Source of the DNA: Verrucomicrobiota bacterium | GTDB lineage: Bacteria; Auribacterota; JABMQX01; JAFGEW01 | Direction of reading: 5' to 3' | Assembly (NCBI GenBank): GCA_016931415.1 | Contig: JAFGEW010000061.1 | Span: 20,110 to 84,109, forward strand | DNA: 64,000 nucleotides | Part shown: piece after piece, positions 31,648-50,890 of the stretch | How the letters are laid out: the number at the start of each line of letters is the position of its first letter | How positions within the stretch are numbered: the stretch's first letter is position 1 | Position numbers and translations under genes: made by a program | Notes under the pieces: model-generated | What the model saw: only the letters and a program-made list of their open reading frames with translations | The model's database searches: none | Told to the model about the DNA's origin: nothing

Positions 31648-31764
31648 AGCGCTGAGCAGTTGCGGTGCGGGGCTGCGCGGCCCCGCCGAAGCCCTGAAGG
31701 GGCGACAGACGTCCTGGCGACAGGCCGGGGGCGACTGAAACAGATCATTCGAAAGGCCACAACA

Positions 31765-35406
<3,642 letters not shown>

Positions 35407-36097: not shown

Positions 36098-37048
36098 ATG
36101 AAGCATGCATTGACCTTCCTGACTGCCCTTGCCATTGTGGCAACCGTCGCCGTCCTGGTAACCTTCGCCAGCCCGGCCTTGGCGGGGATGGCCCCGGCCA
36201 ATCGCGCCGGCGGAGATCAGGCACAACCGCTCAGCCTGGCCCTCCACCTGCAGAAGGGCGACACGCACCAAATCATCAGCTCGACGCAGGAGTCATGGCA
36301 TCACGCCAGCATCCAACCTGCCGATCCTGTTATTGAAGAGCTGACCATGACGATGGAGACCCTCGACATCGACGAAGAAGGCAACATCACGGCCAAGATC
36401 ACTTACGACCGCTACACCTTCAGGAAAGGACCCGTCAGCTTCGACTCGGATGATCCGAACGGGAAGCCCGACATCTTCCTCGCGGCCAAGTCCGCCATGG
36501 TCGGGCAATCTTTCAAGGCGAAGCTGTCTCCCCGAAACGAAGTGCTCGAGATCATGGACACCGACATGCTCCGGCAAGCCATCTTAGCCAAGGTAGGCAG
36601 CAAGGACGCGGCCATTGACGGCACCCGCGCTCTGAGCGTCATGGGCCTGCTGCGTGACGAAGACACCAAGGAGCATCTGGAATACTTCCTCCCGCCGTAC
36701 TCCGACAAACCGCTGAACGTCGGCGACACCTGGGTTCAACAGGAAGAACTGTCCGGGTCGGTATCCGATTGCACCTACACGCTCGAGTCCCGCCAGGACG
36801 GCATCGCCACACTTCGCGTCAAGGGCGATGTGACTGAGGGCAACACGCAGCTCGGTACGATGAAGGAAGTCTTCAATATCGATGAGGCATCTGGCACCAT
36901 CGTGGAGGCCGTTCTCTGGACGGAAACCACCAGCGAGTCAACCTCGATCAGCATGAACGACAGACATGAGGAGACCCGAAGGGAGATCGTCCCCTTTGTG
37001 CACGGAACCACGACGAAACTCACCTGGCGGAAACTGACCAAGGAATAG
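36098..37048 (+). CDS. Secreted protein, paralogue 1 of a 5-member tandem family (unknown function)
   Basis: GAGGAGAG SD and a signal peptide ending ALA. Shared family motifs are LxLxLxxGDT, (F/Y)DSDxP..., VGQSFKAKLSPRNEVLEI and GDTW. Confidence 0.85.
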   Translation: MKHALTFLTALAIVATVAVLVTFASPALAGMAPANRAGGDQAQPLSLALHLQKGDTHQIISSTQESWHHASIQPADPVIEELTMTMETLDIDEEGNITAKITYDRYTFRKGPVSFDSDDPNGKPDIFLAAKSAMVGQSFKAKLSPRNEVLEIMDTDMLRQAILAKVGSKDAAIDGTRALSVMGLLRDEDTKEHLEYFLPPYSDKPLNVGDTWVQQEELSGSVSDCTYTLESRQDGIATLRVKGDVTEGNTQLGTMKEVFNIDEASGTIVEAVLWTETTSESTSISMNDRHEETRREIVPFVHGTTTKLTWRKLTKE

Positions 37049-37072
37049 GCTTCAAGCAGCCTGTGACAATAC

Positions 37073-37105
37073 CCTTCCCGTGTCCTCGGCGAGGACACGG
37101 GAAGG
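37073..37105 (+). terminator. Stem-loop after paralogue 1 (terminator-like, no T-tract)
   Basis: CCTTCCCGTGTCCTC-GGC-GAGGACACGGGAAGG forms a 15-bp perfect stem 25 nt after the stop. No U-run follows. Confidence 0.4.
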
Positions 37106-37185
37106 AACCCCATTCGTCGGACAACAGATGCACCTGAGGAAGCGAGGCGAACAGGTTCTGACGCGCGAAGCGGAGAGATACCGTG

Positions 37186-37537
37186 ATGCGCATACGCATG
37201 GTGCTCACGACGCTCGTCCTCCCCGATCCCGCGCAGATCTGTGCGGCCCTCATCGGCCAACCCCCCAAAGTAGAGCTCTATCGAGGCGATCGAGAGGGCG
37301 CTGGACGAAGACAACGCGGCCACCACCATCGGCAACAACCTCGATGGCGACGCGTTGGAGACGCTCAATGGAGGCTTCCCCGGCATCGGCGTTCCCACTG
37401 AAAGACGTGTCCTCGGAGACTCTTTTGATCTTGGAGATGCACAGCGCAAGAAAACTGAGGATAAATGGGAGATCATCCTTCTCAAGGATCGCAGCAAGAT
37501 CCACGAGTTCCTCAAAGAGCACGTGACGCTGGCTTGA
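37186..37537 (+). pseudogene. Small gene interrupted by a single-nucleotide frameshift (or assembly error)
   Basis: A GGAGAG SD precedes the ATG at 37186, giving a GC3-rich frame MRIRMVLTTLVLPDPAQICAALIGQPPKVEL. Near 37270-37280, just after a C6 run, coding signal switches to the +1 frame: ...IEAIERALDEDNAATTIGNNLDGDALETLNGGFPGIGVP...KDRSKIHEFLKEHVTLA*, which ends at 37537. Confidence 0.4.
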
Positions 37538-37662
37538 CCCCACATGGTGAGGATATTCGAGCACGCAATCCAGTCATGGAGCGCACAGGAAAGGGAATTC
37601 GCGGCGCATCCAAGACCTCCACGTAATCACACCCGCGTGGAATCCTGAAAACAAATAGCAGG

Positions 37663-38145
37663 GCCGTTTCAACGGGCTTCTCGACCGTGATCCACAGCGC
37701 TTAAGCGCCTACGCACGCACAGCAAAGCACGTTGAAACGCGCTCCAGGCACAATGGGGCCTACCGATGAACCAGCGCTGAAGCGCTGGCTTATGCTAAAG
37801 AGAGAAGCCCGTCACGACGGGCTTCTTGATATTATAGTAGGTAAGGCTGCGGCGGGCAGCTCGCCCTCCAAGCGCTTGGGGTGGGGAGACTGGCAGGAGC
37901 CACCGACGCTTCGCTTCGGGAAGGTGCCGGTCCTGCGACTTGTCCTCCGTAGCCCAGCGGAAGAGGACGCCCTTGGCGAAGCAGAACAAGTGCGTGGAAT
38001 GCAGAACGGCCAAACCATGCTCGAAGAGCCCCGAGAGGGGCGACTGATCACTCCTGCCTCGACGGGAATCCCTCAATCGCCCCTGGCGGGGCTCTGATTG
38101 TTCCGGCCCGGCGCAGACCACGGGATCTCGCCCGTGGCTACTGCC
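37663..38145. repeat. Copy B of the ~490-bp hairpin-rich repeat (upstream of paralogue 2)
   Basis: See copy A. Extra GCCCCTGAGGGGGC hairpins follow at about 38147-38168 and 38250-38269. Confidence 0.8.
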
Positions 38146-38341
38146 AATCGCCCCTGAGGGGGCTTCGGAAGAGCCTCTCGCGTCAAGGAGTTGCACGATG
38201 ACCAGCATTCGCGCCATCACGCTACTGCGGGGAACGCGGGCTACCATCAGGCGCCCCTGAGGGGGCTTGACGCCGGCGTTTCGTCCTCCGATTCCTGTCG
38301 CCCTGTGCCTTGGGGTCCTGTGGTTGTCATCTCCGCACTCA

Positions 38342-38368
38342 TTGGGCGCACCGCCCATGTGCTATACT
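38342..38368 (+). promoter_or_regulatory. Candidate extended -10 promoter of paralogue 2
   Basis: TGC-TATACT (38360-38368) with a weak TTGGGC -35 at 38342-38347, about 45 nt before the ATG at 38413. The alternative is the conserved TTGACG box at 38267-38272. Confidence 0.3.
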
Positions 38369-38412
38369 TCTGTCGGTTGGAGTACCTACGTCCACACACA
38401 GGGAGACATCCG

Positions 38413-39408
38413 ATGCACAGATTGTTCGCAACGACCGCCCTCGTTCTGCTTGCCCTGCTGCTGGCCGGCACGGCGCCCGCCGCCGACACCGTGGAGCTCA
38501 AGCTCCGCCTCGACGAGGGCACGACGTACAAGATGACCATGGCCGTGACGCAGGCAATCACCCAGACGGCCATGGGCCAAGAGCTGAACATCGACCAGAC
38601 GATGGGCTTCGGCATCTCATTCAGAACCACGAAGGTTGACGCCGACGGTGCCATGACGGTCGAGGTTAGGTACGACTCCGTCTCCTTCGAGCAGGACGGT
38701 CCGATGGGCTGGACCGAGTACGACTCGGCCGATCCGCCCGACGAAGTCCCCATGCAGGCCAGAGCCTTCGCGGGGATGGTGGGCCGCGGCTTCAGCCTGA
38801 AGCTCTCGCCTAGGGGCCAAGTCCTTGACATCGAGGGTGTAGATAAGTTTTTCGACGCGGTCATGGAGGCTATGGACCTGCCCGAAGGCCCGATGCTCGA
38901 CCAGATGAAGGAGCAGCTCAAGCAGCAGTTCGGCGAGGACGCCATGAAGCAGCAAGCTCAAATGATGTTTGCGATGCTTCCGGACAAGCCCGTCGGCGTC
39001 GGCGACTCCTGGACCGACAAGATCGACATGTCCGGCATGCTGCCGATGACCGTCGAGAACACCTGCAAGGTCACCTCGATCGACGACGACGGGATCGCGA
39101 TCGATGTGGAATCCACGATTTCGCCCGTCGAGGGGAGTGAACCGATACAGATGGGCGGGGCCTCGATGAAGATGGACCTCAGCGGCACGCAGAAAGGCTC
39201 CATGGAGCTCAGCCGGCAGTCGGGTCTGCCGATCAAGGCCGTCATCGACCAGGATATCGAGGGCACAATAACAGTATCCCAGCCCGGCTCTGCCGAGCCG
39301 ATGTCCATCCCGATCACCATCAAGTCCAAGACCACGATAGAGGGCGGGATCGTCGAAGGCGACACCGCTCCGGCGGAAACAACAGACGCGCCTAAGGACG
39401 CTGAATGA
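38413..39408 (+). CDS. Secreted protein, paralogue 2
   Basis: GGGAGA SD, signal peptide MHRLFATTALVLLALLLAGTAPAA. Motifs are LKLRLDEGTTY, YDSADPPDEVP, VGRGFSLKLSPRGQVLDI and GDSW. Confidence 0.88.
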   Translation: MHRLFATTALVLLALLLAGTAPAADTVELKLRLDEGTTYKMTMAVTQAITQTAMGQELNIDQTMGFGISFRTTKVDADGAMTVEVRYDSVSFEQDGPMGWTEYDSADPPDEVPMQARAFAGMVGRGFSLKLSPRGQVLDIEGVDKFFDAVMEAMDLPEGPMLDQMKEQLKQQFGEDAMKQQAQMMFAMLPDKPVGVGDSWTDKIDMSGMLPMTVENTCKVTSIDDDGIAIDVESTISPVEGSEPIQMGGASMKMDLSGTQKGSMELSRQSGLPIKAVIDQDIEGTITVSQPGSAEPMSIPITIKSKTTIEGGIVEGDTAPAETTDAPKDAE

Positions 39409-40361
39409 GCCGTTCCGTGCGCGTAGTTGCTCTGGCCGTTGTCGTCGCCGTCCTGATACCCGCCGTGGGCCGGGCCGGCGACGACACGGCCGATCTGCGT
39501 CTTCACTTCGAGCAGGGGAAGACCTACACGCTTGTCGTCACCGTCGAGCAGAAGATCCGTCAGCTCGTCCAGGCCGACGGGACGCCGGGCGAGGAGCAGG
39601 TCATCGCCCAGACGGTCACGGTCGGCCAGACGCTTGACGTCGAGAAGGTCGACAAGGACGGCGTCGCCACGGTCAAGGTGACATTCAGCTCGCTCGCCAT
39701 GCGCACGGAAATGGGCGAGTTCAGCATCGAGCACGACTCGGCCGACCCGCCGGACGAGGTGTTGCCCGCGGCCCGGCCGCTCGCCGTCATGGCCGGCCGT
39801 TCCTTCGTCATGAAGGTCAAACCCGACGGCACGCTCGTGGCGCTCGAAGGCGTCAACGAGATGCTTGAGGCCGCCCTCAAGTCGATCGCCCTGCCCGAGG
39901 CCTCCCGGGAACGCCTCCGCGAGAGCCTCGAGCAGCAGTTCGGCCGCCAAGCGCTTCGCGAGTTGATCGAAGGGCATCTGAGCCACATCCCCGGCAAGCC
40001 GGCCGGCATCGGCGACACGTGGTCGCACACGCTCGACGTCGAGAGCGGCTACGCGGCCACGTTCGAGGCGCAGTACACGCTGCGCGAACGCGAGCACGGC
40101 GTCGCCACGATCGGGACTCGGATCAAGCTCACGCCCAACGCCGCTGCCCCGCTGCAGAAGCTGGGCGGCGCCATGGTCCGCTACGAGCTCGAAGGCACAC
40201 AGGAAGGATCGTTCCGCATCGACGAGGCGAGCGGCTGGTACATCGACGGTGCGCTCACCCAGAGGCTCAAGGGCGACATGCTCGTCACCGATCCGCGGAA
40301 GACCAAGACGCTTCGCATCCCCATGATCATCGAGAGCACCATCACGCTCGCGACCGAGTAG
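39405..40361 (+). CDS. Secreted protein, paralogue 3
   Basis: ATGA start/stop overlap with paralogue 2, plus a signal peptide. Motifs are LRLHFEQGKTY, HDSADPPDEVL, AGRSFVMKVKPDGTLVAL and GDTW. Confidence 0.88.
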   Translation: MSRSVRVVALAVVVAVLIPAVGRAGDDTADLRLHFEQGKTYTLVVTVEQKIRQLVQADGTPGEEQVIAQTVTVGQTLDVEKVDKDGVATVKVTFSSLAMRTEMGEFSIEHDSADPPDEVLPAARPLAVMAGRSFVMKVKPDGTLVALEGVNEMLEAALKSIALPEASRERLRESLEQQFGRQALRELIEGHLSHIPGKPAGIGDTWSHTLDVESGYAATFEAQYTLREREHGVATIGTRIKLTPNAAAPLQKLGGAMVRYELEGTQEGSFRIDEASGWYIDGALTQRLKGDMLVTDPRKTKTLRIPMIIESTITLATE

Positions 40362-40379
40362 ACACAGCGCGCACAACAG

Positions 40380-40420
40380 ACGGCCGCCGCATCCCCGAGG
40401 ATACGGCGGCCGTTTCGCAT
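40380..40420 (+). terminator. Intrinsic-terminator-like hairpin after paralogue 3
   Basis: ACGGCCGCCG-(14-nt loop)-CGGCGGCCGT followed by TTCGCAT, which is a weak U-tract. Confidence 0.45.
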
Positions 40421-40502
40421 GAACATTGCTCCCCCCGCGCCGTAGAAGAGGATAGCGTTTCAGGACAGCCGAGAAGACACACGCCGGCACGGGAGGATTC
40501 CG

Positions 40503-41531
40503 ATGAGACAGGCCTTCACACTGCTTGCTGCGCTCACCGTGGCGGTCTTCTTGACCACGGCAATGGCGGCTGACAACGACGCCCTCGACTTGCGCCTTCG
40601 CCTTCAGCCAGGCGACACCTACAAGGCGACCGCCACGATCGAGAGGACCTACGCCGACTGGATCGAAGACGTGGAGACCACCGAGGTAACCGTTGTCGAG
40701 CTCACGTTGACTATGACAACCCTCGACGTGGACGAGGAAGGCAACGCCACGATCGAGATCACGTACGACCGGTACGCCGTCTCGTCGAACGGTGACAAGG
40801 CCGAACGGTTCGAGTTCGACTCGGACAGCCCGCCCGATGAGCTGAACGGCCCGGTCGCCGTAACCGCGGCGCTCGTGGGCCAATCATACAAGGCAAGACT
40901 CTCGCCTCGAGGCGAGGTCCTCACCATCGAAGAGGCCGATGAACTGCGACAGGCACTCGCCGACGCGACACGGCAGGCCGGACGCCTGATGCCGCGCGCA
41001 AGCGCCGAGGTGCTGACCCTACTCGACGACGAGGGGCTTGAAGAGCATCTCCCTTACTGCCTCACCGTCTACCCGGACAAGCCGGCGACAAGCGGCGACA
41101 CCTGGATCCGGCAAGTGAAGCAATCCGTGCTCCTCGCCACGCCTGATAGCGCCACAGCACACAAGGAGTTCCAGGTGAATGTGCCCGCGCTATCCATTCC
41201 CGTGATTGCCGACGCGGCCTACACTCTCGAATCGCGCCACAACGGCATCGCGACGATCAACGTCAAGGAGACCTTCACGCTGGACAAAGACAAGCTGCGC
41301 CCCAGCTTCGCCAGAGGAAACGAGAACGCTGAGAACGCAGGTGAAGGCGAAGCGACCATCGTCATCGACGAGGAAACCGGCGTTCCTGTGGAAGCTGATC
41401 TGCGTCGTGTGATCGACGGCCAGAGGAAGACTGTGCTGGTCGGGCATGATGGCCGTCTCGAGCTAGCGCCGACCCCCACGACGTTCGAGACCACCATAAG
41501 CGTCAGGTGCGAGAGGGTGGCGACGGAGTAG
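40503..41531 (+). CDS. Secreted protein, paralogue 4
   Basis: GGAGGA SD and a signal peptide ending AMA. Motifs are LDLRLRLQPGDTY, FDSDSPPDELN, VGQSYKARLSPRGEVLTI and GDTW. Confidence 0.88.
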   Translation: MRQAFTLLAALTVAVFLTTAMAADNDALDLRLRLQPGDTYKATATIERTYADWIEDVETTEVTVVELTLTMTTLDVDEEGNATIEITYDRYAVSSNGDKAERFEFDSDSPPDELNGPVAVTAALVGQSYKARLSPRGEVLTIEEADELRQALADATRQAGRLMPRASAEVLTLLDDEGLEEHLPYCLTVYPDKPATSGDTWIRQVKQSVLLATPDSATAHKEFQVNVPALSIPVIADAAYTLESRHNGIATINVKETFTLDKDKLRPSFARGNENAENAGEGEATIVIDEETGVPVEADLRRVIDGQRKTVLVGHDGRLELAPTPTTFETTISVRCERVATE

Positions 41532-41552
41532 AACTCGACGTCAACGATCATC

Positions 41553-41598
41553 GAGCGGCCGCCGCATCCTACAGGGTGTGGCGGCCCGTCTGTTTTTG
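41553..41598 (+). terminator. Rho-independent terminator after paralogue 4
   Basis: A GGCCGCC...GGCGGCC stem followed by CGTCTGTTTTTGCGTTT. The stem sequence is related to the hairpin at 40380. Confidence 0.55.
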
Positions 41599-41690
41599 CG
41601 TTTCACGTGGAACCGCGCTGAGGGCTTCTACGTATTCGGGTGCAAGGAACCGCGCTCAACCTGGTACACGGAAGAACGAGGAGAAACAGA

Positions 41691-42779
41691 ATGCGGCACA
41701 CACTCACCCCCCTCACAGTGCTCCTACTCGTCGCCCTGTCACTGGCGGCTCCGGCCGCCGATGACGGTGAGAACACGCTCGACCTGCGACTGCGCCTCGA
41801 GAAAGGCGACACGTACACGTTCACCACGCAGATCCAGAGCACCGTTGACCGCTGGCTCACCGACGGTGAGGTGAGCGAGACGACGACATTGGCCTTGGCG
41901 CAGACGGTCAAAGTCGTTGCCGTCAAGGACACCGGCGCGGCCACCCTCAGCGTCACCTATGACCGCATCGCCCTGAAGATCGAGTCCGACGCCGGCGTCT
42001 TCGAGTTCGACTCGGCCAACCCGCCCGACGAGCTCGAGTTCCCGCTCAATGTCTTGGATGCCCTTGTCGGGCAGTCGCTCATGGTGAAGGTCTCGCCCAC
42101 GGGCAAGATCACCAGCATCACAAACAGGCACACGGTCCGCATGGCGCTCACGGAAGCACTGGAAGGCGACAGCGAGGAAGAGGACGAGGACGACGAGGAT
42201 GGAACCAGCCGTCGCGTCACGCGCGTCATCAGCATCATGGCGCAGGGCGACAACGCCTCCACCCTTGCGAACTACTACGATGGGATGCGCTTGCTTACCG
42301 ACGACAAGGTCTTCTATGAGCACCTGGCCTTCCTCGCCGTGCTGTATGCCGACGCGCCCGTAAAAACCAGCGAGACCTGGAACAAGACCACGAAGGAGAC
42401 CGGCCGCTACGCCGGGACGTGTGAGACCACCTACAAGCTCGTTTCTGGCGGCAACGGCACGGCCGAAATCCAGCTCGCCGGCACCATCAAGGGCGATCCG
42501 GACGCCAAGCCGCTCAAGACGGGAATCAGCTTCGGTCCGACAGCCCCCATGACTGAACTCGAAGGCACCCACAAGGGCGCAGTCACGATCGATGAGAACA
42601 CCGGCCTTGTGCGCGAAGGCACGCTGATACGCAGCATCAAGGGCAACACGTCGACCTTCAACCCGATGGATCCTTCAAACATGATGCCGGTCCCGACCAC
42701 GGTCGATACGACAATCAAGATCAAAGGCGGCAGACCTGCCACGGCCACGAGCAAGGAGACAGCCGCTTCCGCAGACTAA
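41691..42779 (+). CDS. Secreted protein, paralogue 5 (with acidic insert)
   Basis: GAGGAGAA SD, signal peptide MRHTLTPLTVLLLVALSLAAPAA. Motifs are LDLRLRLEKGDTY, FDSANPPDELE, VGQSLMVKVSPTGKITSI and SETW. It carries a unique insert, EGDSEEEDEDDEDGT. Confidence 0.88.
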   Translation: MRHTLTPLTVLLLVALSLAAPAADDGENTLDLRLRLEKGDTYTFTTQIQSTVDRWLTDGEVSETTTLALAQTVKVVAVKDTGAATLSVTYDRIALKIESDAGVFEFDSANPPDELEFPLNVLDALVGQSLMVKVSPTGKITSITNRHTVRMALTEALEGDSEEEDEDDEDGTSRRVTRVISIMAQGDNASTLANYYDGMRLLTDDKVFYEHLAFLAVLYADAPVKTSETWNKTTKETGRYAGTCETTYKLVSGGNGTAEIQLAGTIKGDPDAKPLKTGISFGPTAPMTELEGTHKGAVTIDENTGLVREGTLIRSIKGNTSTFNPMDPSNMMPVPTTVDTTIKIKGGRPATATSKETAASAD

Positions 42780-43344: not shown

Positions 43345-43457
43345 TCGTCCGCGCGACCCGGCAGGATCGGCCTTGCATTCCCCCGCACGTGGCGCGATTC
43401 TTGCACCCTGCCGCTCGACGGGCCACCATGTACGTTGCCGAAGTCGGAGCATCCCGC

Positions 43458-44300
43458 ATGGGTTTTCTGCGCACACTCTGGCTGGCGATCAAGATGCGGA
43501 TCGCCTGGTTCCTGCTGACCGCCGCCGTCATCGGCGGCGCCGTGCTTGTCTTCGGCCCGCGTTCCGACAAGGTGGACACCCTGCGCCGCGTGCTGGCCGA
43601 TCGCGTGCTCGACGAGGTTATCCGCGACGTCGAGCGCCGGGTCGTTGCGCACGAGATCCGCAAGCGGCTCGCCGTGCTCGACTTCGACGGCGAGCACGGA
43701 CGGTTCATGGCCGACCTGTTGCGGCAACGCCTGCGCCGCAAGGGCCTGCTCGTCGAGCAGCGCCCGTCAGCACTCAACAAGACGCTCGACAGGCTGGGCC
43801 TTGCAGGCACCGCACAGACCGCGGGGGACGCGGCCAAGATCGCCAGGGAGGTTGGCGCCGATGCGGTCGTCTATGGACGGGTCGCTGAGTTCTCGCGCGA
43901 TGGCAACAGCGGAGCCGTCCGGATCGAGGTCGCGCTGGCCGACGCCGGTGCTGCCGAGGACCTCTCACGCGACTCCTACGCGGCCGTCTGGCCGGCACAC
44001 GTGCTCGACCGGATCACTGCCTTCGGCGCGGGCTGGCGGCTGCTCATCTGGCTCGGCGTGGTCGTCGTCGTGCCGCTCGCCGCGTACCCGATCGCGCGTG
44101 CCACACTCGATCGCGAGTCGAACGCACTGACCTTCCTGCTGCTCTTCGCGCTCACAGCGCTCGACCTCGCGGTCGCCTTGCTCTTGCTGGGTTTTTCGGT
44201 CCGCACCGTATGGGCCGCGCTGCTGGTATGCGGCGCGTTCGGCGGCGCGGGCGTGTACAACTACCTCGTCATGAACTCGTACGAGAAGATGAGAGCTTAG
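43458..44300 (+). CDS. Membrane protein: N-terminal TM, about 130-aa soluble domain, C-terminal multi-TM bundle (unknown family)
   Basis: ATG at 43458 with a GGAG SD. The soluble part (LAVLDFDGEHG...AAKIAREVGADAVVYGRVAEF) looks like the small alpha/beta fold of CsgG/LpoB/FlgO-type proteins. Three to four TM helices sit at the C-terminus. It lies immediately upstream of the ESCRT-III-like gene. Confidence 0.65.
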   Translation: MGFLRTLWLAIKMRIAWFLLTAAVIGGAVLVFGPRSDKVDTLRRVLADRVLDEVIRDVERRVVAHEIRKRLAVLDFDGEHGRFMADLLRQRLRRKGLLVEQRPSALNKTLDRLGLAGTAQTAGDAAKIAREVGADAVVYGRVAEFSRDGNSGAVRIEVALADAGAAEDLSRDSYAAVWPAHVLDRITAFGAGWRLLIWLGVVVVVPLAAYPIARATLDRESNALTFLLLFALTALDLAVALLLLGFSVRTVWAALLVCGAFGGAGVYNYLVMNSYEKMRA

Positions 44301-44361
44301 ATTCAGACAGAGACAACGGAATCCCGTGGATCCTGTCCAAACGAGATCGAGGATGCGTGCC

Positions 44362-44961
44362 ATGGCCCTGTTCAAATCGCAATCGAAGCGCAAGATGGAG
44401 CGCGAGATCGCCATCCGTCGCGCCGTCAACCACATCAGGAAGCAGGTCGGCTCGCTCGAACAGAACGAGCGCGCTTACGCCGAGAAAGCCAAACGCGCGC
44501 TCCAGATGGGCTCGGCCGACCAGCTCGAGTTCCTCAAGAAGACGCTGAAGAAGACGGCGTCCCAGCGCCGGCTCATGGAGCGCCAACTGCTCAACATCGA
44601 GACTGCCGTCCAAATCAAGAACCAAGCCGAGGCCCACGCCGGGTTCGCCAAGGCGATGACGGCGCTCAGCCGCTCGATCAGCGAGATGTTCGCCGCCACC
44701 GACATGGCCAAGACCCAGCGCGCCTTCGAGAGCGCGCTCGCCAAGGCGCAGACGATGGAAGAGCAGATGGACGTCTTCCTCGACGCGAGCGCCGAGGCGA
44801 TGTTCGGCTATGAGCCTGCCGCCGCGAGTGACGGACTGGTGAGCGACGCCGAGATCGAGCGCATGATCACGGGCGAAGTCGTCCAAGCCGAAACGGCCGG
44901 CCTCGACGCCGACATCGAAGCCGGCCTCAAAGAGGTCGAGAAAGAGCTGAAGCGAGAATAG
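44362..44961 (+). CDS. ESCRT-III (Snf7/CHMP superfamily) protein, Vps2/CHMP2-like, with C-terminal MIM1-like helix
   Basis: About 199 aa, all helical. The start is ATG at 44362 (alternative 44326). The basic N-terminal hairpin (MALFKSQSKRKMEREIAIRRAVNHIRKQ...) is followed by NQAEAHAGFAKAMTALSRSISEM...TQRAFESALAKAQTMEEQMDVFLD. That segment parallels human CHMP2A SNNSMAQAMKGVTKAMGTMNRQ...KIMMEFERQAEIMDMKEEMMNDAID (sequence recalled from memory). The acidic C-terminus LDADIEAGLKEV parallels CHMP2A DADLEERLKNL. Confidence 0.75.
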   Translation: MALFKSQSKRKMEREIAIRRAVNHIRKQVGSLEQNERAYAEKAKRALQMGSADQLEFLKKTLKKTASQRRLMERQLLNIETAVQIKNQAEAHAGFAKAMTALSRSISEMFAATDMAKTQRAFESALAKAQTMEEQMDVFLDASAEAMFGYEPAAASDGLVSDAEIERMITGEVVQAETAGLDADIEAGLKEVEKELKRE

Positions 44962-44968
44962 TCCAACC

Positions 44969-45031
44969 TCTGCGAGCTCTGCGCCTCTGCGAGAGAGAAG
45001 AAGTATCTCGCAGAGGCGCAGAGCTCGCAGA
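44969..45031 (+). promoter_or_regulatory. Perfect 26-bp inverted repeat (intercistronic stem-loop) between the ESCRT-III-like and AAA+ genes
   Basis: TCTGCGAGCTCTGCGCCTCTGCGAGA (44969-44994), an 11-nt loop, then TCTCGCAGAGGCGCAGAGCTCGCAGA (45006-45031). No U-tract follows. It ends 13 nt before the AAA+ ATG. Confidence 0.7.
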
Positions 45032-45044
45032 ATGGCAATCAACC

Positions 45045-46151
45045 ATGAATGCCGCTGAGTTTCTTCTCCACAGCTTCGAGGCGCACAAGGCGAAGGGGCT
45101 GGCCGCGTATCGCGGCGGCGAGCGCCGTGCCGCGCGCCACAACCTGCTCAAGGCCGCCGAGTACCTCTTCCTCCTCGCCGCGAAATCACGTGAGCCGCTC
45201 CGGTCGACGAGAAAGACGCACGCTCGCACGCTGCTCGAGATGGCCAAGAAGCTGCCGCTTGACCCAGCCAAAGTGCTCGACGGTGAGCCGGGCGGCACCT
45301 CGGCCGACGCGGCGCGCTGGATCGTGACGGAGAAGCCCGGCGTCTCGTTCGACGGCGTTGCCGGACTCGACGACGTGAAGGACGAAATCCGCCGCCTCGT
45401 CATCCACCCCTTCCAGCATCCCGAGGCAACCGAGCGTTTTCGCAAGCAGGCCGGCGGCGGCGTGCTGCTCTACGGCCCGCCCGGCACGGGCAAGACGATG
45501 ATCGCCAAGGCCATCGCCGCCGAGATCGACGCCGTGTTCCTCACCGTCCGCTGCTCGGACATCCTGAGCAAATGGTTCGGCGAGGCCGAGCAGAACCTCA
45601 AGGCGTTGTTCGCCGAAGCCCGCTCGCACGATCGTGCCGTCATATTTCTCGATGAGGTCGAGGCCATCGTCGCCCGGCGCGGCCAAGGCTCGACCGTCAT
45701 GGACCGCGTCATCCCCGAGTTCCTCTCACAGCTCGACGGGCTCGGTACCGAGTCCGCCTGCCTGCTCGTGCTCGGCGCTACCAATCGCCCGTGGGACCTG
45801 GACGAGGCGGCCCTTCGCGCCGGACGGTTCGGCCGCACGATCTACGTCGGTCTGCCCAACCTCGCCGCCCGCCGCGCCATCCTCGCACAAACGCTCGAAG
45901 ACGTGCCCGTTGCCGACGACGTGAACCTCGACGCACTCGCCGAGCAGCTCGACGGCTACAGCGGCGCCGACATCGCCGGCCCGCGCGGCCTCATCGATAC
46001 TGCCACCGACTTCCCCTACGAACGCGCCATCGCCGGCGACGAGAACGCCGTGCTGATCCGCAATGACCTCCAGCGCGCCCTCGGAATCGTCAAGCCCACC
46101 GTTTCCAAGCAGATGCTCGCACGCTATAGTGCCTTCGCGCACGCCGGCTGA
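45045..46151 (+). CDS. MIT-like domain AAA+ ATPase (Vps4/spastin/katanin-type), copy 1
   Basis: The N-terminal ~80-aa helical domain follows the MIT pattern (A..KA...Y..G....A...L.KAAEYL...A). Walker A is LLYGPPGTGKT, the pore loop is SKWFGEAEQ and Walker B is VIFLDEVE. The SRH is GATNRPWDLDEAALRAGRFGRTIYVGLP. The C-terminal helix is KPTVSKQMLARYSAFAHAG, comparable to the Vps4/spastin C-terminal helix. Confidence 0.8.
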   Translation: MNAAEFLLHSFEAHKAKGLAAYRGGERRAARHNLLKAAEYLFLLAAKSREPLRSTRKTHARTLLEMAKKLPLDPAKVLDGEPGGTSADAARWIVTEKPGVSFDGVAGLDDVKDEIRRLVIHPFQHPEATERFRKQAGGGVLLYGPPGTGKTMIAKAIAAEIDAVFLTVRCSDILSKWFGEAEQNLKALFAEARSHDRAVIFLDEVEAIVARRGQGSTVMDRVIPEFLSQLDGLGTESACLLVLGATNRPWDLDEAALRAGRFGRTIYVGLPNLAARRAILAQTLEDVPVADDVNLDALAEQLDGYSGADIAGPRGLIDTATDFPYERAIAGDENAVLIRNDLQRALGIVKPTVSKQMLARYSAFAHAG

Positions 46152-46227
46152 CGCGGCGGCACAGAAACGCAATGTGCCGGAACGGCTCGGGATGACCGGG
46201 ATATGGCGAACAGCACGGGAGAGGCCG

Positions 46228-46542
46228 ATGTTTGAATTCTATGGCATCCAAATCGCAAGTTATTTGGCCTTCGCAATGATCCTTGTTGCTTCCATTCTCA
46301 GGGCTCGTCGGGAAGGGGGTGTTGGGGCGTGGATGAGCGCCGGGGCTGCAATGCTGATCATTGTATTCATGCTTGCCAACGCTCTTTTATGTCGCCCCCA
46401 AGTTGGCGCTCCTCAGAGGGACGGGACCGTTCAGGTAGTCTGGTCGCCCACATGGGTCCACCTCAATGCCATCGTCCCTCCCGTTGCCCTTCTTACCTAT
46501 GGCGTTGGTCTGCTGCTAAGCTGCTCCACAAGGAGGCGATGA
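46228..46542 (+). CDS. Small integral membrane protein (104 aa, ~3 TM)
   Basis: GGGAGAGG SD then ATG at 46228. The three hydrophobic segments are IASYLAFAMILVASIL, GAAMLIIVFMLANALL and VPPVALLTYGVGLLL. GC is locally lower. Confidence 0.6.
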   Translation: MFEFYGIQIASYLAFAMILVASILRARREGGVGAWMSAGAAMLIIVFMLANALLCRPQVGAPQRDGTVQVVWSPTWVHLNAIVPPVALLTYGVGLLLSCSTRRR

Positions 46543-46666
46543 AAGATGCCGCCTGTTGAGCGTCCTCAAAGCGAATGGCAGGGGCGTCTTGCCCGTGAGA
46601 AGCATGGGGTGGAAGACCACGCCACACGGCGAATGGACGGCGCCCTCTGCGAGGAATAGTTTCAGC

Positions 46667-47548
46667 ATGAAGATCAGCGGGTTCACCTTCGTCCGGAACG
46701 CCGTGCGCCTCGACCTACCCGTCGTCGAGGCGATCACGTCCGTGCTGCCCGTGTGCGACGAGTTCATCGTTGCGGCGGGCGACTCGGACGACGCCACAAC
46801 CGACCTCGTGCGCGCCATCGGCGATCCGCGCATCCGCATTATCGAGACCGTGTGGGATCCGCAGCACTTCGTCCGAGGCGCCATCTACGCGCAGCAGACC
46901 AACGTCGCGCTCGCCGAGTGCACGGGCGACTGGTGCTTCTACATCCAGGCCGACGAGGCCGTGCACGAGGACGACCTGCCGCGCGTCAAACAGTGCATGG
47001 AGCAGAACCTCGACCGGCCCGAAGTCGAAGGCCTGCTCTTCCGCTTCCTCCACTTCTGGGGCGACTACGAGCACTACCATCGCGCGCACAACTGGTACGA
47101 CCGAGAGATCCGCATCGTACGCAACCGCGTTGGCGTCGAGTCGTGGCACGACGCCCAGGGCTTCCGCCGCCACGGGCAGAAGCTCAAGGTTGTGAACGCC
47201 GGCGCGTCCGTCTACCACTACGGCCACGTGCGCCACCCCGAGATCGTCGCGCAGAAGCAGACCGTCATGGACGCCGTGTACCGCACCCAGCTCAACGGCG
47301 CCAATCACCGCCCGCCGTTCGACTACACGCCCCTCGAGCGCGTCCCGCGCTTCACCGGCACGCACCCGCGCGTCATGCGCGAGCGCATCGCCTCAAAGAA
47401 CTGGGACGCCGCCGACTACCGCGGCTCCGGCAACCCGAAGCAGCACAAGCACGATCGCCTCTCGCAGCGCCTCCTGACCTTTGTCGAGAACAACCTCCTC
47501 GGCGGCCACCGCATCTGGACCCGCCGCAACTATGTCCTCATCCACTGA
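46667..47548 (+). CDS. GT-A fold (GT2-like) glycosyltransferase-like protein
   Basis: MKISGFTFVRNAVRLDLPVVEAITSVLPVCDEFIVAAGDSDDAT...FYIQADEAVHEDD fits the SpsA-like/GT2-like pattern seen in many uncharacterised glycosyltransferases. The internal ATG at 46667 was chosen as the start. Confidence 0.6.
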   Translation: MKISGFTFVRNAVRLDLPVVEAITSVLPVCDEFIVAAGDSDDATTDLVRAIGDPRIRIIETVWDPQHFVRGAIYAQQTNVALAECTGDWCFYIQADEAVHEDDLPRVKQCMEQNLDRPEVEGLLFRFLHFWGDYEHYHRAHNWYDREIRIVRNRVGVESWHDAQGFRRHGQKLKVVNAGASVYHYGHVRHPEIVAQKQTVMDAVYRTQLNGANHRPPFDYTPLERVPRFTGTHPRVMRERIASKNWDAADYRGSGNPKQHKHDRLSQRLLTFVENNLLGGHRIWTRRNYVLIH

Positions 47549-47827
47549 ACAAACGCGCGACGCTATCGTTCCTTCTTGTCCGCGGCCCGATCCATGGCGC
47601 ATTGTCTCTGGTCAGTAAGATGGACACGTTGTCCACGGAGGCAAACGCAATGTGGACCAGACAGATCTTCACTGATTTGCGGTTCAGCGTTTCCCGCCCC
47701 GTCCATCTGTTTCGCTTCACTGAGGGTTGGCATGGCAACGCGTCAAGCGCCGGTATGGCTGCATTGATCGTGCCGGCCACCTTGTCTGGCAGCCCATCAG
47801 GTTGAGCATTGCCCCGTGCCTTCGCTC

Positions 47828-47856
47828 TTGGAGTGGTGCCCCTGCCGCGCTACAAT
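47828..47856 (+). promoter_or_regulatory. Candidate sigma70-type promoter for the WG-repeat / Vps4-like-2 transcription unit
   Basis: TTGGAG (47828-47833), a 17-nt spacer, then TACAAT (47851-47856), about 44 nt before the ATG at 47900. A 350-bp lower-GC spacer precedes it. Confidence 0.45.
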
Positions 47857-47899
47857 CCCCCCAAGATCGTCCGGCAATACGCCACACAATGGGGTATCC

Positions 47900-48982
47900 A
47901 TGAGCCAATGTCGATACCGCCGCGCACGGTGGGCGGCCTTGCTGTTCGCGCTCATCGTTGTTGCGGCGATGATGATCCACACGGTGCCGCCGCGCGCCTC
48001 GGGCTGCCCCGTCCAGGAAGCCGGCCAAGAACCGACGCAGGTCGTCGAGTCTGTGCTTGACGCCTCGGGTCCTCTCTTCCCCGTCCAGATCAACGGCCGC
48101 TACGGCTACATGGACAGGACGGGCCGCCTCGTCATCGAGCCGCGGTACAGCAACGCGTTCTTCTATCGCGAGGGTCTCGCTCTTGTCGGCGATAACGAGC
48201 TCTATGGCGTGATCGACGCCTCCGGCCGCACCGTGATCGAGCCGCGCTTCGAGCGGTTCGCCGACCGATTCGCGGAGGGTCTGCTCGCCGTGGCGGCCGG
48301 CGACGTGTGGGGTTACGTGGACCGCAGGGGCACGTGGGCCATCGCCGCCCGGTTCAACTTCGCCGGGCAGTTCTCCAACGGCCTCGCCCCCGTCCAAATC
48401 GGCCCCAAGTGGGGCTACATCAACCGTGCCGGCGAGATCGTGATCGAACCACAGTTCGACATGGCCTACACCTTCGCTGAGGGCCTCGCCGTTACGGTCA
48501 TCGACGGCAAGCACGGGTACGTCGACAAGACCGGCAGGACAATCATCGAACACAAGTTCGAGGCCGCCGGTTCCTTTGGCGAGGGGCTCGCCCCCACACG
48601 CACCGAGAACAAGTGGGGCTACATCAATCACAGCGGCCGCTTCGTCATCAAACCGAAGTTCCACTTCGCCCAGTCGTTCACTCACGGCCGTGCCGTCGCC
48701 TCCATCGAGCAGGACGGACGCTTCAAGTGGGGCTACATTGACCGCACCGGCACGTTCGTCATCCTGGCCGATTTCGACAGCGTCCAGGCCTTCAGCGACG
48801 GCGCCGCTCCCGTCATGATGGGCGGCAAGTGGGGCTTCATTGACACCGCGGGCCGCTTCATCATCGAACCGCGCTTCGACTACGTCCAAGCCTTCGAAGA
48901 CGGTCTCGCCCGCGTCGTCATCGAGCAGAAAAGCGGCTACATCAACACCAAAGGCGAGTACGTCTGGGAGCCATCGGAGTGA
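47900..48982 (+). CDS. WG-repeat (KWG-type) containing exported protein
   Basis: N-terminal hydrophobic signal or anchor. It has about 9 tandem repeats of the form (K)WGYIDRTGRxVIEPxFDxAxxFxEGLAxV. Confidence 0.85.
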   Translation: MSQCRYRRARWAALLFALIVVAAMMIHTVPPRASGCPVQEAGQEPTQVVESVLDASGPLFPVQINGRYGYMDRTGRLVIEPRYSNAFFYREGLALVGDNELYGVIDASGRTVIEPRFERFADRFAEGLLAVAAGDVWGYVDRRGTWAIAARFNFAGQFSNGLAPVQIGPKWGYINRAGEIVIEPQFDMAYTFAEGLAVTVIDGKHGYVDKTGRTIIEHKFEAAGSFGEGLAPTRTENKWGYINHSGRFVIKPKFHFAQSFTHGRAVASIEQDGRFKWGYIDRTGTFVILADFDSVQAFSDGAAPVMMGGKWGFIDTAGRFIIEPRFDYVQAFEDGLARVVIEQKSGYINTKGEYVWEPSE

Positions 48983-49033: not shown

Positions 49034-50221
49034 ATGGCCGTTGACTTGAGCGGACAGATCTACCGGGCGCTCCAGGGAGCGCTCGACAAGGCGCGGCGTG
49101 CGAACGTCGAAGGGCGCACGGCCGAGGCCCGCGCGACGTACCGCGAGTGCGCGCGCCTGATGCAGGACTACGCCAAGTACGCGCCGACGCTTGCTGAGAA
49201 AGTCCGCCGCCTCAACACGGCAAAGGAGTACCTCGCCCAGGCCGAGGGCAAGACCGAGCGCGCCGAGCCGGCGCCTGCCGTGCCACCTGCTTCCGCGCCG
49301 GCCGCCAAACCGTCGTCCGCCGCGGCCGAACGCCCGCGCGACGCCTATTCCGACGCGATCGAGGCACTCGTCTACCGCGCGCGCGTCACCTGGGCCGACA
49401 TCGGCGGCCTCGACGAGACCAAGCGCGAGATCCGCAGTGCCTTCGCCCTCGGCGTGGTCAAAACGCCCGCCGGCCTCAACATCGAGGGCTGGCGCAATAT
49501 CCTTCTCTACGGCCCGCCCGGCACGGGCAAAACGCTGCTTGCCGCCGCCGCGTCGAACGAAATTGCCGCGACGTTCCTCAACGTGCGCGCCGGCGATGTG
49601 CTCTCGAAGTACTTCGGCGAATCGACCCGGCTCGTTTCGGCCCTCTTCGCCTATGCCGCCGCCCACGAACCGTGCGTCGTATTCCTCGATGAGTTCGACG
49701 CGCTCGGCATCCCGCGCGACCAGAGCGACAGCGGCGCCGAGCGCCGCATGCTCTCGGCCATCCTCACCGAGCTCGACGGGCTGAGCGGCAAGGGCGCGCG
49801 CCATGCCGTGCTCACCATCGCCGCCACGAACGCGCCCTGGGCGCTCGACGCCGCCGCGCTGAGCCGATTCGACAAGCGCATCTACGTTCCCCTGCCCGAC
49901 CGCGCCGCGCGCGCCGCCGTGCTGCGCATCCATCTCGACGCGAAAGGCTATCGCCTCGACGGCGACTACGGTGCGCTCGCCGCTGCCACGGACGGCACCA
50001 GCGGCCGCGAGCTGGCCCGCCTGTGCAAAGAGGTCGCCAACCGCATGATCCACGAGGCGAACCCCGACCTCATCGACCGCAACGTCGAGGCGCTCAAGGC
50101 CTATACGCTGCACACGCGGCCTTTGACGATGGCCGACTTCGAGCCGGTGCTCGCGAGTCTCAAGGCCGAGACGCCGCCGGCCGCCGTGCGCCGATACGAA
50201 GCCTTTGCCTCAACGACCTGA
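49034..50221 (+). CDS. Vps4-like MIT-domain AAA+ ATPase, copy 2
   Basis: The MIT-like N-domain is QIYRALQGALDKARRANVEGRTAEARATYRECARLMQDYAKY...RRLNTAKEYLAQAE (compare Vps4 A..KA...D..G.YEEAL.LY......F.....Y......K.....EYL.RAE). A Pro/Ala-rich linker follows. Walker A is LLYGPPGTGKT, the pore loop is SKYFGESTR and Walker B is VVFLDEFD. The SRH AATNAPWALDAAALSRFDKRIYVPLPD is very close to Vps4 GATNIPW.LD.A.RRRFEKRIYIPLPE. The C-terminal helix is VRRYEAFA. Confidence 0.85.
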   Translation: MAVDLSGQIYRALQGALDKARRANVEGRTAEARATYRECARLMQDYAKYAPTLAEKVRRLNTAKEYLAQAEGKTERAEPAPAVPPASAPAAKPSSAAAERPRDAYSDAIEALVYRARVTWADIGGLDETKREIRSAFALGVVKTPAGLNIEGWRNILLYGPPGTGKTLLAAAASNEIAATFLNVRAGDVLSKYFGESTRLVSALFAYAAAHEPCVVFLDEFDALGIPRDQSDSGAERRMLSAILTELDGLSGKGARHAVLTIAATNAPWALDAAALSRFDKRIYVPLPDRAARAAVLRIHLDAKGYRLDGDYGALAAATDGTSGRELARLCKEVANRMIHEANPDLIDRNVEALKAYTLHTRPLTMADFEPVLASLKAETPPAAVRRYEAFASTT

Positions 50222-50260: not shown

Positions 50261-50890
50261 ATGGGCGTAACCGACCTGCTGAAAAGCCTCTTCGGCGGCA
50301 AAGCGAAGACCCTCGAATCGATCTCCAGCGACGAGCTGCGGCGCGAACGTATCCGCATCGAACAGGAGGAAGCGCGCCACATCAAGAAGCTCGATGAGCT
50401 GGAACGCGACAAGCAGTCGCTCTTCGAGAAGGGCACCGACGAACCGTCGCAGCGCCAGCAGATCATCGTCGCGCGCAAGATCAAGGAGCTCGACCAGCAG
50501 GGGCGCAACTACGACCAGACGCTCAAGCTGCTCTCGCGCCAGCTCCGCATCATCTCCGGCTTCCTCCACGTCAAGGAGAACAAGGCGCTGCTCGAGAAAA
50601 CCGCCGTCTCCAGCCTCCTGGCCAAGATGGACCTCGCCGACCTTCAGCGCTTCGTCGAGGCCGCCACGGTCGAGGGCCAGTTCCAGATGGACAAGTTCGA
50701 GCATATCCTCACCACGCTCGAAGACTACGACCTCGACTCGACGGCTGCCTCCGAGGATACCGACACCATCGCCATCGTCGAGGCGATGAACCGCGCCCGT
50801 AGCGCCAAGAACGTCAACCCCGAGGCCGCCATCAGGGAAGGCGTCGCCGAGATCGACCGGATCCTGCGCAAGGACCAGGAGCCGGCTTGA
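50261..50890 (+). CDS. ESCRT-III (Snf7/CHMP4-like) coiled-coil protein, copy 2
   Basis: GGGAGA SD. The N-terminus MGVTDLLKSLFGGKAKT resembles the Snf7/CHMP4 N-terminus (M..FGKLFGGGGK). A long basic helical hairpin (RRERIRIEQEEARHIKKLDELERDKQSLFEKG...QQIIVARKIKELDQQGRNYDQTLKLLSRQLRII) is followed by an acidic region and a C-terminal amphipathic helix, GVAEIDRILRK. Confidence 0.7.
   Translation: MGVTDLLKSLFGGKAKTLESISSDELRRERIRIEQEEARHIKKLDELERDKQSLFEKGTDEPSQRQQIIVARKIKELDQQGRNYDQTLKLLSRQLRIISGFLHVKENKALLEKTAVSSLLAKMDLADLQRFVEAATVEGQFQMDKFEHILTTLEDYDLDSTAASEDTDTIAIVEAMNRARSAKNVNPEAAIREGVAEIDRILRKDQEPA

Follow-up and report, generated by a model that had tools for sequence, protein, structure and literature searches.

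Reviews confine the pairing of a Snf7-family (ESCRT-III) protein with AAA ATPases that bear an MIT domain to archaea and eukaryotes, and according to a 2025 review a Vps4-like ATPase appears to be absent in bacteria (PMC7619361). Bacterial MIT-type Vps4-like ATPases, those of Planctomycetes included, have been described and read as transfers from archaea; in their operons an unrelated TPR-6TM gene displaces snf7, the same authors report a divergent, membrane-anchored Snf7 that occurs with PspA and a double-AAA protein (Ravi et al., 2024; PMC11237479). The locus considered here lies in a 64,000-nt stretch (the window; ~65% G+C) of the bacterial contig JAFGEW010000061.1, in which coding frames were judged from a clear third-position G+C signal. 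It holds two adjacent genes: E3, which encodes an ESCRT-III-like protein, and AAA1, which encodes a single-cassette AAA+ ATPase with an MIT-like N-domain. Sequence comparisons and predicted structures make it fairly likely that a bacterial membrane-remodelling module of the ESCRT-III/Vps4 kind has E3 and AAA1 at its core.

No prior description of an E3-AAA1 operon was found in the literature searched. Conserved bacterial pairing of a Snf7-family gene with genes for MIT-bearing AAA ATPases would revise the picture of Vps4-less bacteria and provide a bacterial model for the coupling of an ESCRT-III polymer to an unfoldase.

The E3-AAA1 gene pair

Both genes are found where an earlier note on this DNA had placed them, with the following features:

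44362-44961 (+): E3, open reading frame (ORF; stop codon included) of 199 aa that starts MALFKS; ESCRT-III-like, Snf7/CHMP family
44362-44379 (+): N-terminal motif MALFKS (family consensus MGLFKS); F4, K5, and S6 are invariant in 35 orthologues
44842-44868 (+): motif SDAEIERMI (family consensus SDxEIDRMI) at the start of the last long helix, candidate helix 5
44905-44958 (+): C-terminal amphipathic helix DADIEAGLKEVEKELKRE, a MIM1-like tail with four of six consensus positions
45045-46151 (+): AAA1, ORF of 368 aa; single-cassette AAA+ ATPase with an MIT-like N-domain, a Vps4-like architecture, and a Cdc48-D2-like core
45051-45248 (+): MIT-like three-helix bundle, residues 3-68 (helices 3-24, 27-46, and 52-68; AlphaFold2 predicted local distance difference test, pLDDT, 94.2)
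45462-45854 (+): AAA core with Walker A GPPGTGKT, pore loop SKWFGEAE, Walker B FLDEVE, and sensor-1 GATNRPWDLD
45807-45857 (+): second region of homology (SRH) AALRAGRFGRTIYVGLP, which fragment searches of solved structures assign to the classical Cdc48 type
46059-46139 (+): C-terminal helix region KPTVS..LARYSAF, with a weak Pfam Vps4_C match (E=0.018, residues 339-365)

The protein end quoted in the note, ...LDADIEAGLKEVEKELKRE, is that of the 199-aa ORF, and the SRH quoted from the ATPase is found in AAA1 (ALRAGRFGRTIYVGLP; LRAGRFGRTIYVGLP). All E3 orthologues begin M-[GA]-L-F-K-S at the Met encoded at 44362, so a longer GTG start at 44326 is unnecessary. The two genes are separated by 83 nt on the same strand, and no terminator-like site was found between them on the + strand.

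How general is this arrangement? A scan of one genome per species yielded 56 loci, of which 49 are informative (at least 1.5 kb downstream of E3); 62 loci were fetched with their flanks. The 56 represent Planctomycetota (among them Phycisphaerae, Tepidisphaerales, and a metagenome-assembled genome, MAG, with the label 'Ca. Kuenenia'), Sumerlaeota, Hydrogenedentes, and MAGs labelled Acidobacteriota or Proteobacteria. In 42 of the 49 informative loci, the strand that encodes E3 also carries an AAA1-type gene no more than 1.3 kb downstream; E3 and AAA1 are thus a conserved same-strand pair, and its recurrence across several phyla supports their functional linkage. So does a distant locus, L063, in which three E3-family paralogues are again paired with an AAA protein bearing the same N-domain. 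Adjacency to ESCRT-III genes is one criterion for Vps4/CdvC ATPases used by Makarova et al. (2024; PMC10936438), and the 42 loci display just this adjacency.

E3 belongs to a compact family: 291 homologues, mostly of ~200 aa, come from MAGs of Planctomycetota and 'Candidatus Sumerlaeota', and an exhaustive profile search of 1.84 billion representatives, which gauges family size, returned 548 clusters at E<=1e-3. On its own, the window E3 reaches Snf7, CHMP2A, and Heimdallarchaeial ESCRT-IIIB at sub-threshold values (E=0.03-0.16). Pfam Snf7 is matched by 22 of 35 aligned orthologues at E<=0.01 (best E=1.5e-9), and a profile of the 35 finds CHMP3 at E=4e-4, aligning E3 residues 13-168 with CHMP3 14-165, then CHMP2A at 0.024 and Snf7 at 0.68. 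The same profile found no PspA or Vipp1 chain at E<=1 among solved structures, and PspA_IM30 (PF04012) is absent from the Pfam matches of the 35 orthologues. The AlphaFold2 model of E3 shows the helices that the ESCRT-III fold calls for (a long hairpin of helices 1 and 2-3, then helices 4 and 5), at 7-49, 52-109, 116-149, and 162-198; every one of the eight highest Foldseek matches is an ESCRT-III protein (CHMP2A, CHMP1B, Asgard ESCRT-IIIB, and CHMP3; probability 0.97-1.0), with CHMP2A on top (E=3.2e-3, probability 1.0), CHMP2A, CHMP1B, and CHMP3 ranked above Snf7, and Vipp1 and PspA lower (probability 0.1-0.5). Sequence and predicted structure thus place E3, with an ESCRT-III fold, in the Snf7/CHMP branch and not in the PspA/Vipp1 branch. 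By profile and Foldseek ranks, rather than by a tree, it appears nearer the CHMP2/CHMP3/CHMP1 than the Snf7/CHMP4 class, in keeping with the note's description of a CHMP2/Vps2-like protein: the CHMP2A/CHMP3 (Vps2/Vps24) class gives the best matches by both methods.

Two short motifs mark the family. The N-terminal MALFKS segment is, by analogy with helix 0 of ESCRT-III, a candidate membrane-insertion segment. In SDxEIDRMI, D162 is invariant and E164 and I165 are at least 90% conserved among the 35 orthologues; the motif is retained even in the FtsK fusions of Clostridiales described below.

The N-terminal part of AAA1 (residues 1-78) is conserved in 40 orthologues, and its predicted bundle resembles MIT domains. 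The top Foldseek match is 2w2u_A, the MIT domain of a Sulfolobus Vps4-like protein bound to a CdvB peptide; others include 2v6y (S. solfataricus MIT), 2v6x (yeast Vps4 MIT with Vps2), a series of VPS4A/B MIT domains, 4niq, 5fvl, 4u7y, 1yxr, 2jq9, MITD1, spartin, and katanin (TM-scores 0.65-0.77). Vps4/CdvC MIT domains dominate this list (0.70-0.77); none of the E-values is better than 0.03, a weakness to be expected of a bundle of ~70 residues. A profile of the N-domain has as its best match 2mpk_A (chitin synthase 1, 74 aa; E=0.009), which we take to be an MIT domain, and Pfam MIT (PF04212) is matched by one of 31 AAA1 N-domains (E=0.007), not by that of the window. The N-domain is homologous to that of AAA2, a second ATPase encoded further downstream (hhalign probability 95.8%, E=6.8e-9), and the AAA2 profile finds the MIT domains of VPS4A and VPS4B at E=0.003-0.02 (1wr0, E=0.0026). 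Fold, structural matches, and homology to the AAA2 N-domain all agree with the note's assignment of an MIT-like N-domain.

The remainder of AAA1 contains a Pfam AAA domain at residues 140-270 (E=6e-38), and its motifs are intact in 40 orthologues: GPPGTGKT, SKW[FV]GEAE, DE, NRPW, and the two SRH arginines. Some orthologues carry a precomputed PF09336 match, and the NCBIfam CdvC model (NF041006) aligns with AAA1 over 12-365 of 370, at 210 bits, below its cut-off of 650. As read from sequence and model, AAA1 comprises an MIT-like bundle, a linker of ~30 residues, one AAA cassette, and a C-terminal helix.

The E3 tail and competing readings

If AAA1 acts on E3, how would it find its substrate? 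The earlier note had proposed a MIM1-like tail on E3. MIM1 is a helix of the Vps2/Did2 class that fills the groove between helices 2 and 3 of an MIT domain, and archaeal CdvB uses a proline-rich MIM2 (PMC5840170). Scored against the six-position MIM1 consensus (D/E)xxLxxRLxxL(K/R), the E3 tail, whose last ~20 residues read TAGLDADIEAGLKEVEKELKRE, has four: D182, and then the hydrophobic I185, L189, and V192 at +3, +7, and +10. This is the pattern that the note had described. The note had aligned the tail with that of human CHMP2A; the CHMP2A chains matched among solved structures are truncated. The helix is predicted at pLDDT 70-73, higher than the preceding linker. D182, I185, G188, E195, and L196 are at least 90% conserved across the 35 orthologues, down to 47% identity, so the helix, whose absence from orthologues the note had named as a possible refutation, is conserved (D..I..GL..[IV]..EL). 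The last 18 residues of the main clade follow the consensus [LV]-D-x-[DE]-I-x-x-G-L-x-[DE]-[IV]-x-x-E-L, in which MIM1 positions 1, 4, 8, and 11 are kept, position 7 (the MIM1 Arg) is almost invariably Gly, and position 12 varies (E, R, or Q). A locus labelled 'Ca. Kuenenia stuttgartiensis' (L044) and a similar Planctomycetota locus (L050) come nearer to the consensus: their tail, FDDEIAERLKKLEKEL, restores the Arg-Leu pair and reaches five of six positions, the near-consensus part reading DDEIAERLKKLEK. Phycisphaerae E3 proteins have a different, leucine-rich ending, ...LRAELDALKRQ.

Taken alone, the tail pattern is only weakly beyond chance: a relaxed form occurs in the last 22 residues of three of 44 window proteins, two of the three being E3 and CC2, the putative paralogue described below. 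What lifts the tail above chance is its conservation, and the alignment puts it clearly under constraint at the place where MIT-interacting motifs sit. A helical MIM1-type contact is the most economical hypothesis because E3, unlike CdvB with its MIM2 (PMC5840170), has no proline-rich segment; recruitment of AAA1 by E3 through a tail-to-MIT contact is, on this sequence pattern, plausible. The acidic and hydrophobic positions and the conservation of the proposed tail have thus stood; its equation with MIM1 has fared less well, with four positions of six, Arg replaced by Gly, and no MIM peptide found by profile.

Several observations weigh against the proposed module. (i) The window E3 alone scores 14 bits (E=0.041) with Pfam Snf7 (PF03357) and does not reach the gathering score of 27.3, and its AlphaFold2 model has a pLDDT of 65.9, a moderate confidence. 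(ii) In its ATPase core, AAA1 resembles Cdc48 D2 more than Vps4: the CDC48 model scores 221 bits on the ATPase part, slightly above the CdvC model, and p97/Cdc48 D2 ranks first among solved structures. In a search with the 74 residues that run from sensor 1 to the lid, only Cdc48, p97, AFG2, and NVL, and no Vps4, are among the best 60 matches. (iii) An adjacent AAA1-type gene is lacking in six of the 49 informative loci. (iv) All relatives of E3 and AAA1 come from MAGs; carriers of the locus are so far uncultured. (v) Both basic MIM1 positions of the tail are lost (G188 and E193), and when the last 40 residues are shuffled with their composition kept, 6% of the shuffles show the relaxed pattern. 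(vi) Charge-complementary co-variation between tail position 7 (G/R/D/E/A) and the MIT columns was not seen in 43 non-redundant E3-AAA1 pairs; three D-type tails do pair with AAKYL instead of AAEYL, a hint of charge complementarity to which the other D, E, and R types do not conform. (vii) A profile of the tail finds, among solved structures, de novo coiled-coil peptides (KEIAKGLKEI) only and no MIM peptide, which leaves the MIM1 label without support from sequence searches; given these designed coiled coils, the tail could be a generic amphipathic helix that serves auto-inhibition or subunit packing.

The last point leads to the alternative that survives best. Helices 5 and 6 serve auto-inhibition or filament packing in other ESCRT-III proteins, and the E3 system could be ESCRT-III/Vps4-like with a C-terminal helix used in this way instead of as an MIT ligand; AAA1 would then be recruited via another surface, such as SDxEIDRMI, or via an adaptor, such as the product of the small ORF that many loci have between E3 and AAA1. 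Such an arrangement would account for the coiled-coil matches and for the nearly invariant Gly, and it gains from SDxEIDRMI, whose conservation equals or exceeds that of the tail and which persists in the Clostridiales fusions, where the tail degenerates, as well as from L005-type loci, which have a 145-aa ORF between the two genes. We nevertheless regard it as unlikely: the conserved tail sits at the extreme C-terminus, as MIT-interacting motifs do, its helical a/d hydrophobic spacing is that of MIM1, the Arg-Leu pair is restored in two loci, and CC2, which is paired with the second MIT-AAA protein, ends in a similar tail.

Does the affinity of AAA1 to Cdc48 point elsewhere? The note had found the SRH more classical in AAA1 than in AAA2, and the fragment searches concur; they cover the best 60 matches among solved structures, where p97 entries are plentiful, and are not an ATPase tree. 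The AAA1 SRH fragment matches Cdc48 in a single stretch at 78 bits, whereas the equivalent AAA2 fragment scores 55-60 bits with Vps4 proteins (VPS4B, 59.8) and 38.8 bits with p97 D2, an alignment that requires a two-residue gap at the SRH. The SRH of the meiotic clade, which lacks the classical two-residue insertion, is therefore that of AAA2 and not of AAA1. AAA1 is not assigned to the Vps4 family, because neither its SRH nor its equivalog score is that of Vps4; it is best described as an MIT-Cdc48-D2-like ATPase that, judging from its sequence, probably works like Vps4.

One could instead see in AAA1 a Cdc48-derived general unfoldase and in E3 its soluble coiled-coil adaptor or substrate, the two acting in protein quality control with no membrane remodelling. 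The core and SRH scores would fit, as would the annotation of orthologues as 'transitional endoplasmic reticulum ATPase', but AAA1 is a helical N-domain on one cassette in 368 aa, with neither a CDC48_N double-psi barrel nor a second cassette, and locus L005 separately encodes a true Cdc48 of 753 aa. With an MIT-like N-domain on one side, a specific ESCRT-III homologue with a conserved hydrophobic N-terminus on the other, and membrane proteins and a Band_7 (SPFH) protein recurring in the loci, we consider such a quality-control role highly improbable. Least probable of all is a PspA/Vipp1-type envelope-stress or anti-phage defence system with an AAA+ partner by chance: PspA and Vipp1 are themselves ESCRT-III superfamily members and turn up further down among the Foldseek matches, and the AAA domains match the defence ATPase IetA generically (113-125 bits), but the former reading was rejected for want of any PspA_IM30, PspA, or Vipp1 match in the E3 family searches and of the sigma-54 activator and helix-turn-helix domains of PspF in AAA1, and the latter because PADLOC gave generic AAA matches only, and assigned none of its families to E3, CC2, or the membrane proteins nearby, Cdc48 and CdvC score about twice as high as IetA, and the loci lie among housekeeping genes (mutL, hisS, ruvB, miaA).

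The wider operon

The preferred reading, a membrane-remodelling module built on E3 and AAA1, extends to two further genes of the window, AAA2 and CC2, and may include a third, TMup:

43389-44300 (+): TMup, 303-aa polytopic membrane protein directly upstream of E3; candidate accessory protein or membrane anchor
49034-50221 (+): AAA2, 395 aa; second MIT-AAA ATPase, with a Vps4-type SRH
50261-50890 (+): CC2, 209-aa coiled-coil protein; probably a divergent ESCRT-III-like paralogue, tail EAAIREGVAEIDRILRKD

AAA2-type genes are present in 27 of the 56 loci and CC2-type genes in 44, in one to three copies. The usual order is CC2 (one to three copies), AAA2, E3, sometimes a small ORF, and AAA1, with AAA2 usually directly upstream of E3. 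In the closest relative (L007, 88% identity), TMup, E3, AAA1, AAA2, CC2, and a HAD gene follow one another without gaps, AAA1 and AAA2 being 4 nt apart. The note had divided the window genes into two modules; this division does not hold, since the contiguity in L007 makes E3-AAA1 and AAA2-CC2 parts of one system, and the 2.9 kb that separate AAA1 from AAA2 in the window (46.2-49.0 kb), absent from L007, look like an insertion that split the operon. That stretch (46225-48982) encodes a 105-aa membrane protein, a GT2 glycosyltransferase, and a WG-repeat protein (eight repeats, E=3e-93). The note was right that the two ATPases are not recent duplicates: AAA1 and AAA2 share 42% identity, in the core only, and form separate orthologous groups that co-occur across phyla, as expected from sequence for old paralogues.

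CC2 is probably a divergent ESCRT-III-like paralogue. CC2 proteins are of ~200 aa and begin MG[FIL][LF]; the family aligns with that of E3 at 68.8% hhalign probability (E=4.5e-5, 146 columns), and the CC2 tail of the window has the same spacing as the E3 tail. A search of solved structures with the CC2 family profile returned nothing relevant, so the assignment draws on hhalign and architecture only.

TMup could serve as an anchor or nucleator, to judge from its sequence: one transmembrane segment at the N-terminus is followed by ~150 aa of soluble domain and, at the C-terminus, by a transmembrane bundle. No family match of TMup reaches its cut-off. Its relatives are found in the flanks of 11 of the 62 fetched loci, directly upstream of E3 in L007; TMup-like proteins are encoded in the window and in L007, L008, L025, L031, L039, L041, L043, and L052.

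Other features of the loci vary. In one Planctomycetota clade (L005, L023, L027-L029, L040, L042, and L047), E3 and AAA1 are ~0.4-0.7 kb apart; in L005 this gap holds the called gene of 145 aa, which has no Pfam match and no counterpart in the window. Proteins with a Band_7 domain recur near the system (L003, 1667-3682; L063, 8513-9268), and a contextual link between SPFH and ESCRT in archaea was noted by Makarova et al. (2024; PMC10936438).

Just upstream of the system in the window (36098-42779) lie five tandem paralogous genes for secreted or lipoprotein-like products of 316-405 aa, the only one scanned (41640-42779) being a DUF6263 protein (E=7e-29); none of these paralogues is found beside E3 in other loci. 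Further upstream, and read from the sequences only, are a class II ribonucleotide-reductase-like gene (31660-35406) and, at 1-30000, genes mostly for glycosyltransferase-like and very large polytopic membrane proteins, together with an asparagine synthase, a radical-SAM-like protein, and a methyltransferase; the latter region looks like a large locus of envelope or glycan biosynthesis.

Some distant members of the E3 family (P0322, P0381, P0379, P0388, P0390, and P0356) continue at their C-terminus into FtsK_alpha and an FtsK/SpoIIIE motor, the ESCRT-III-like domain replacing the usual N-terminal membrane domain; two of the six clusters are labelled 'Clostridiales bacterium' MAGs. One fusion (L063, 6001-7863) is encoded in an operon of a bacterium with 55% G+C, together with two free E3 paralogues, the Band_7 protein, and the AAA protein with the same MIT-like N-domain. 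FtsK and SpoIIIE work where septa close, and the fusion to such a motor hints, no more, that E3 polymers mark membrane necks. In another family member, P0340 (603 aa), the E3 domain is followed by a complete RuvB; the fusion may be real or an error of gene calling. The ruvB gene of L001 is found on the strand opposite to E3, ~5 kb upstream.

Proposed mechanism and comparison with known systems

How might such a module work? E3 would polymerize on the cytoplasmic face of the inner membrane via its MGLFKS N-terminus and helical hairpin; an AAA1 hexamer would dock on the polymer through its MIT domains, the likeliest contact being the conserved C-terminal amphipathic helix of E3; and the AAA1 pore, with its KW[FV]GE loop, would thread E3 and extract subunits, so that the filament is remodelled or disassembled and the membrane constricted, cut, or repaired. 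CC2 paralogues and AAA2 would make this a composite polymer with a second, Vps4-type disassemblase.

A bolder claim can be put forward tentatively, as possible rather than probable: that a genuine ESCRT-III/Vps4 machine of several subunits exists in Planctomycetota and several further bacterial phyla and carries out membrane scission. The machine would comprise one Snf7-family subunit, one to three divergent paralogues, and two MIT-AAA ATPases, and could act in FtsZ-independent division or budding, vesicle formation, or the invagination of internal membranes. The fusion of the E3 domain to FtsK/SpoIIIE in Clostridiales would fit action at closing membrane necks. Many Planctomycetota have no known FtsZ and no known division machinery, which makes the E3-AAA1 locus a concrete candidate for it. 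If the claim were true, the pairing of ESCRT-III with MIT-AAA proteins would be older than the divergence of bacteria and archaea, or have passed from one domain to the other, and would not be an archaeal innovation. Vps4 has been proposed to derive from Cdc48 (PMC10936438), and AAA1, which combines an MIT domain with a Cdc48-D2-like core, bears on that proposal.

The described systems resemble this one to different degrees. Bacterial PspA/Vipp1 (IM30; with PspF in Proteobacteria) are also members of the ESCRT-III superfamily that form helical-hairpin polymers at the inner membrane, sometimes beside an AAA+ gene; E3, however, falls in the Snf7/CHMP branch, and its partner is an MIT-bearing classical AAA protein and not a sigma-54 activator. 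The bacterial Vps4-like operons of Ravi et al. differ in another way: the conserved neighbour here is a Snf7-family gene, not a TPR-6TM gene.

Archaeal CdvB/CdvC of Sulfolobales provide a closer parallel: an ESCRT-III gene adjoins a gene for an MIT, single-AAA protein, each system has several ESCRT-III paralogues, no structure matches the AAA1 N-domain better than that of the CdvC MIT domain with its CdvB peptide (2w2u), and the CdvC model aligns with AAA1 end to end. Unlike the Cdv system, no CdvA-like gene was identified among the genes examined here; CdvB has a proline-rich MIM2 and a winged helix (PMC5840170), whereas the E3 tail is helical and proline-free and E3 has no winged helix; and AAA1, with 210 bits against a cut-off of 650 and a Cdc48-like SRH, comes from a bacterial host.

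The A-type ESCRT-III proteins of eukaryotes and Asgard archaea (CHMP2A/Vps2, CHMP3/Vps24, and CHMP1B), which act with Vps4, are the best sequence and fold matches of E3 and share with it a length of ~200 aa, an MGLF-type N-terminus, an acidic C-terminal half, and a final amphipathic helix with MIM1 spacing. They differ in that the basic residues of MIM1 are missing in most E3 orthologues, and identity between E3 and CHMP proteins is ~15-22%; nor are ESCRT-I, ESCRT-II, or Vta1 seen here, and two different MIT-AAA ATPases take the place of one. Archaeal and eukaryotic ESCRT-III proteins form composite, sequentially disassembled polymers, and it is these that the set of E3, CC2, AAA1, and AAA2 resembles.

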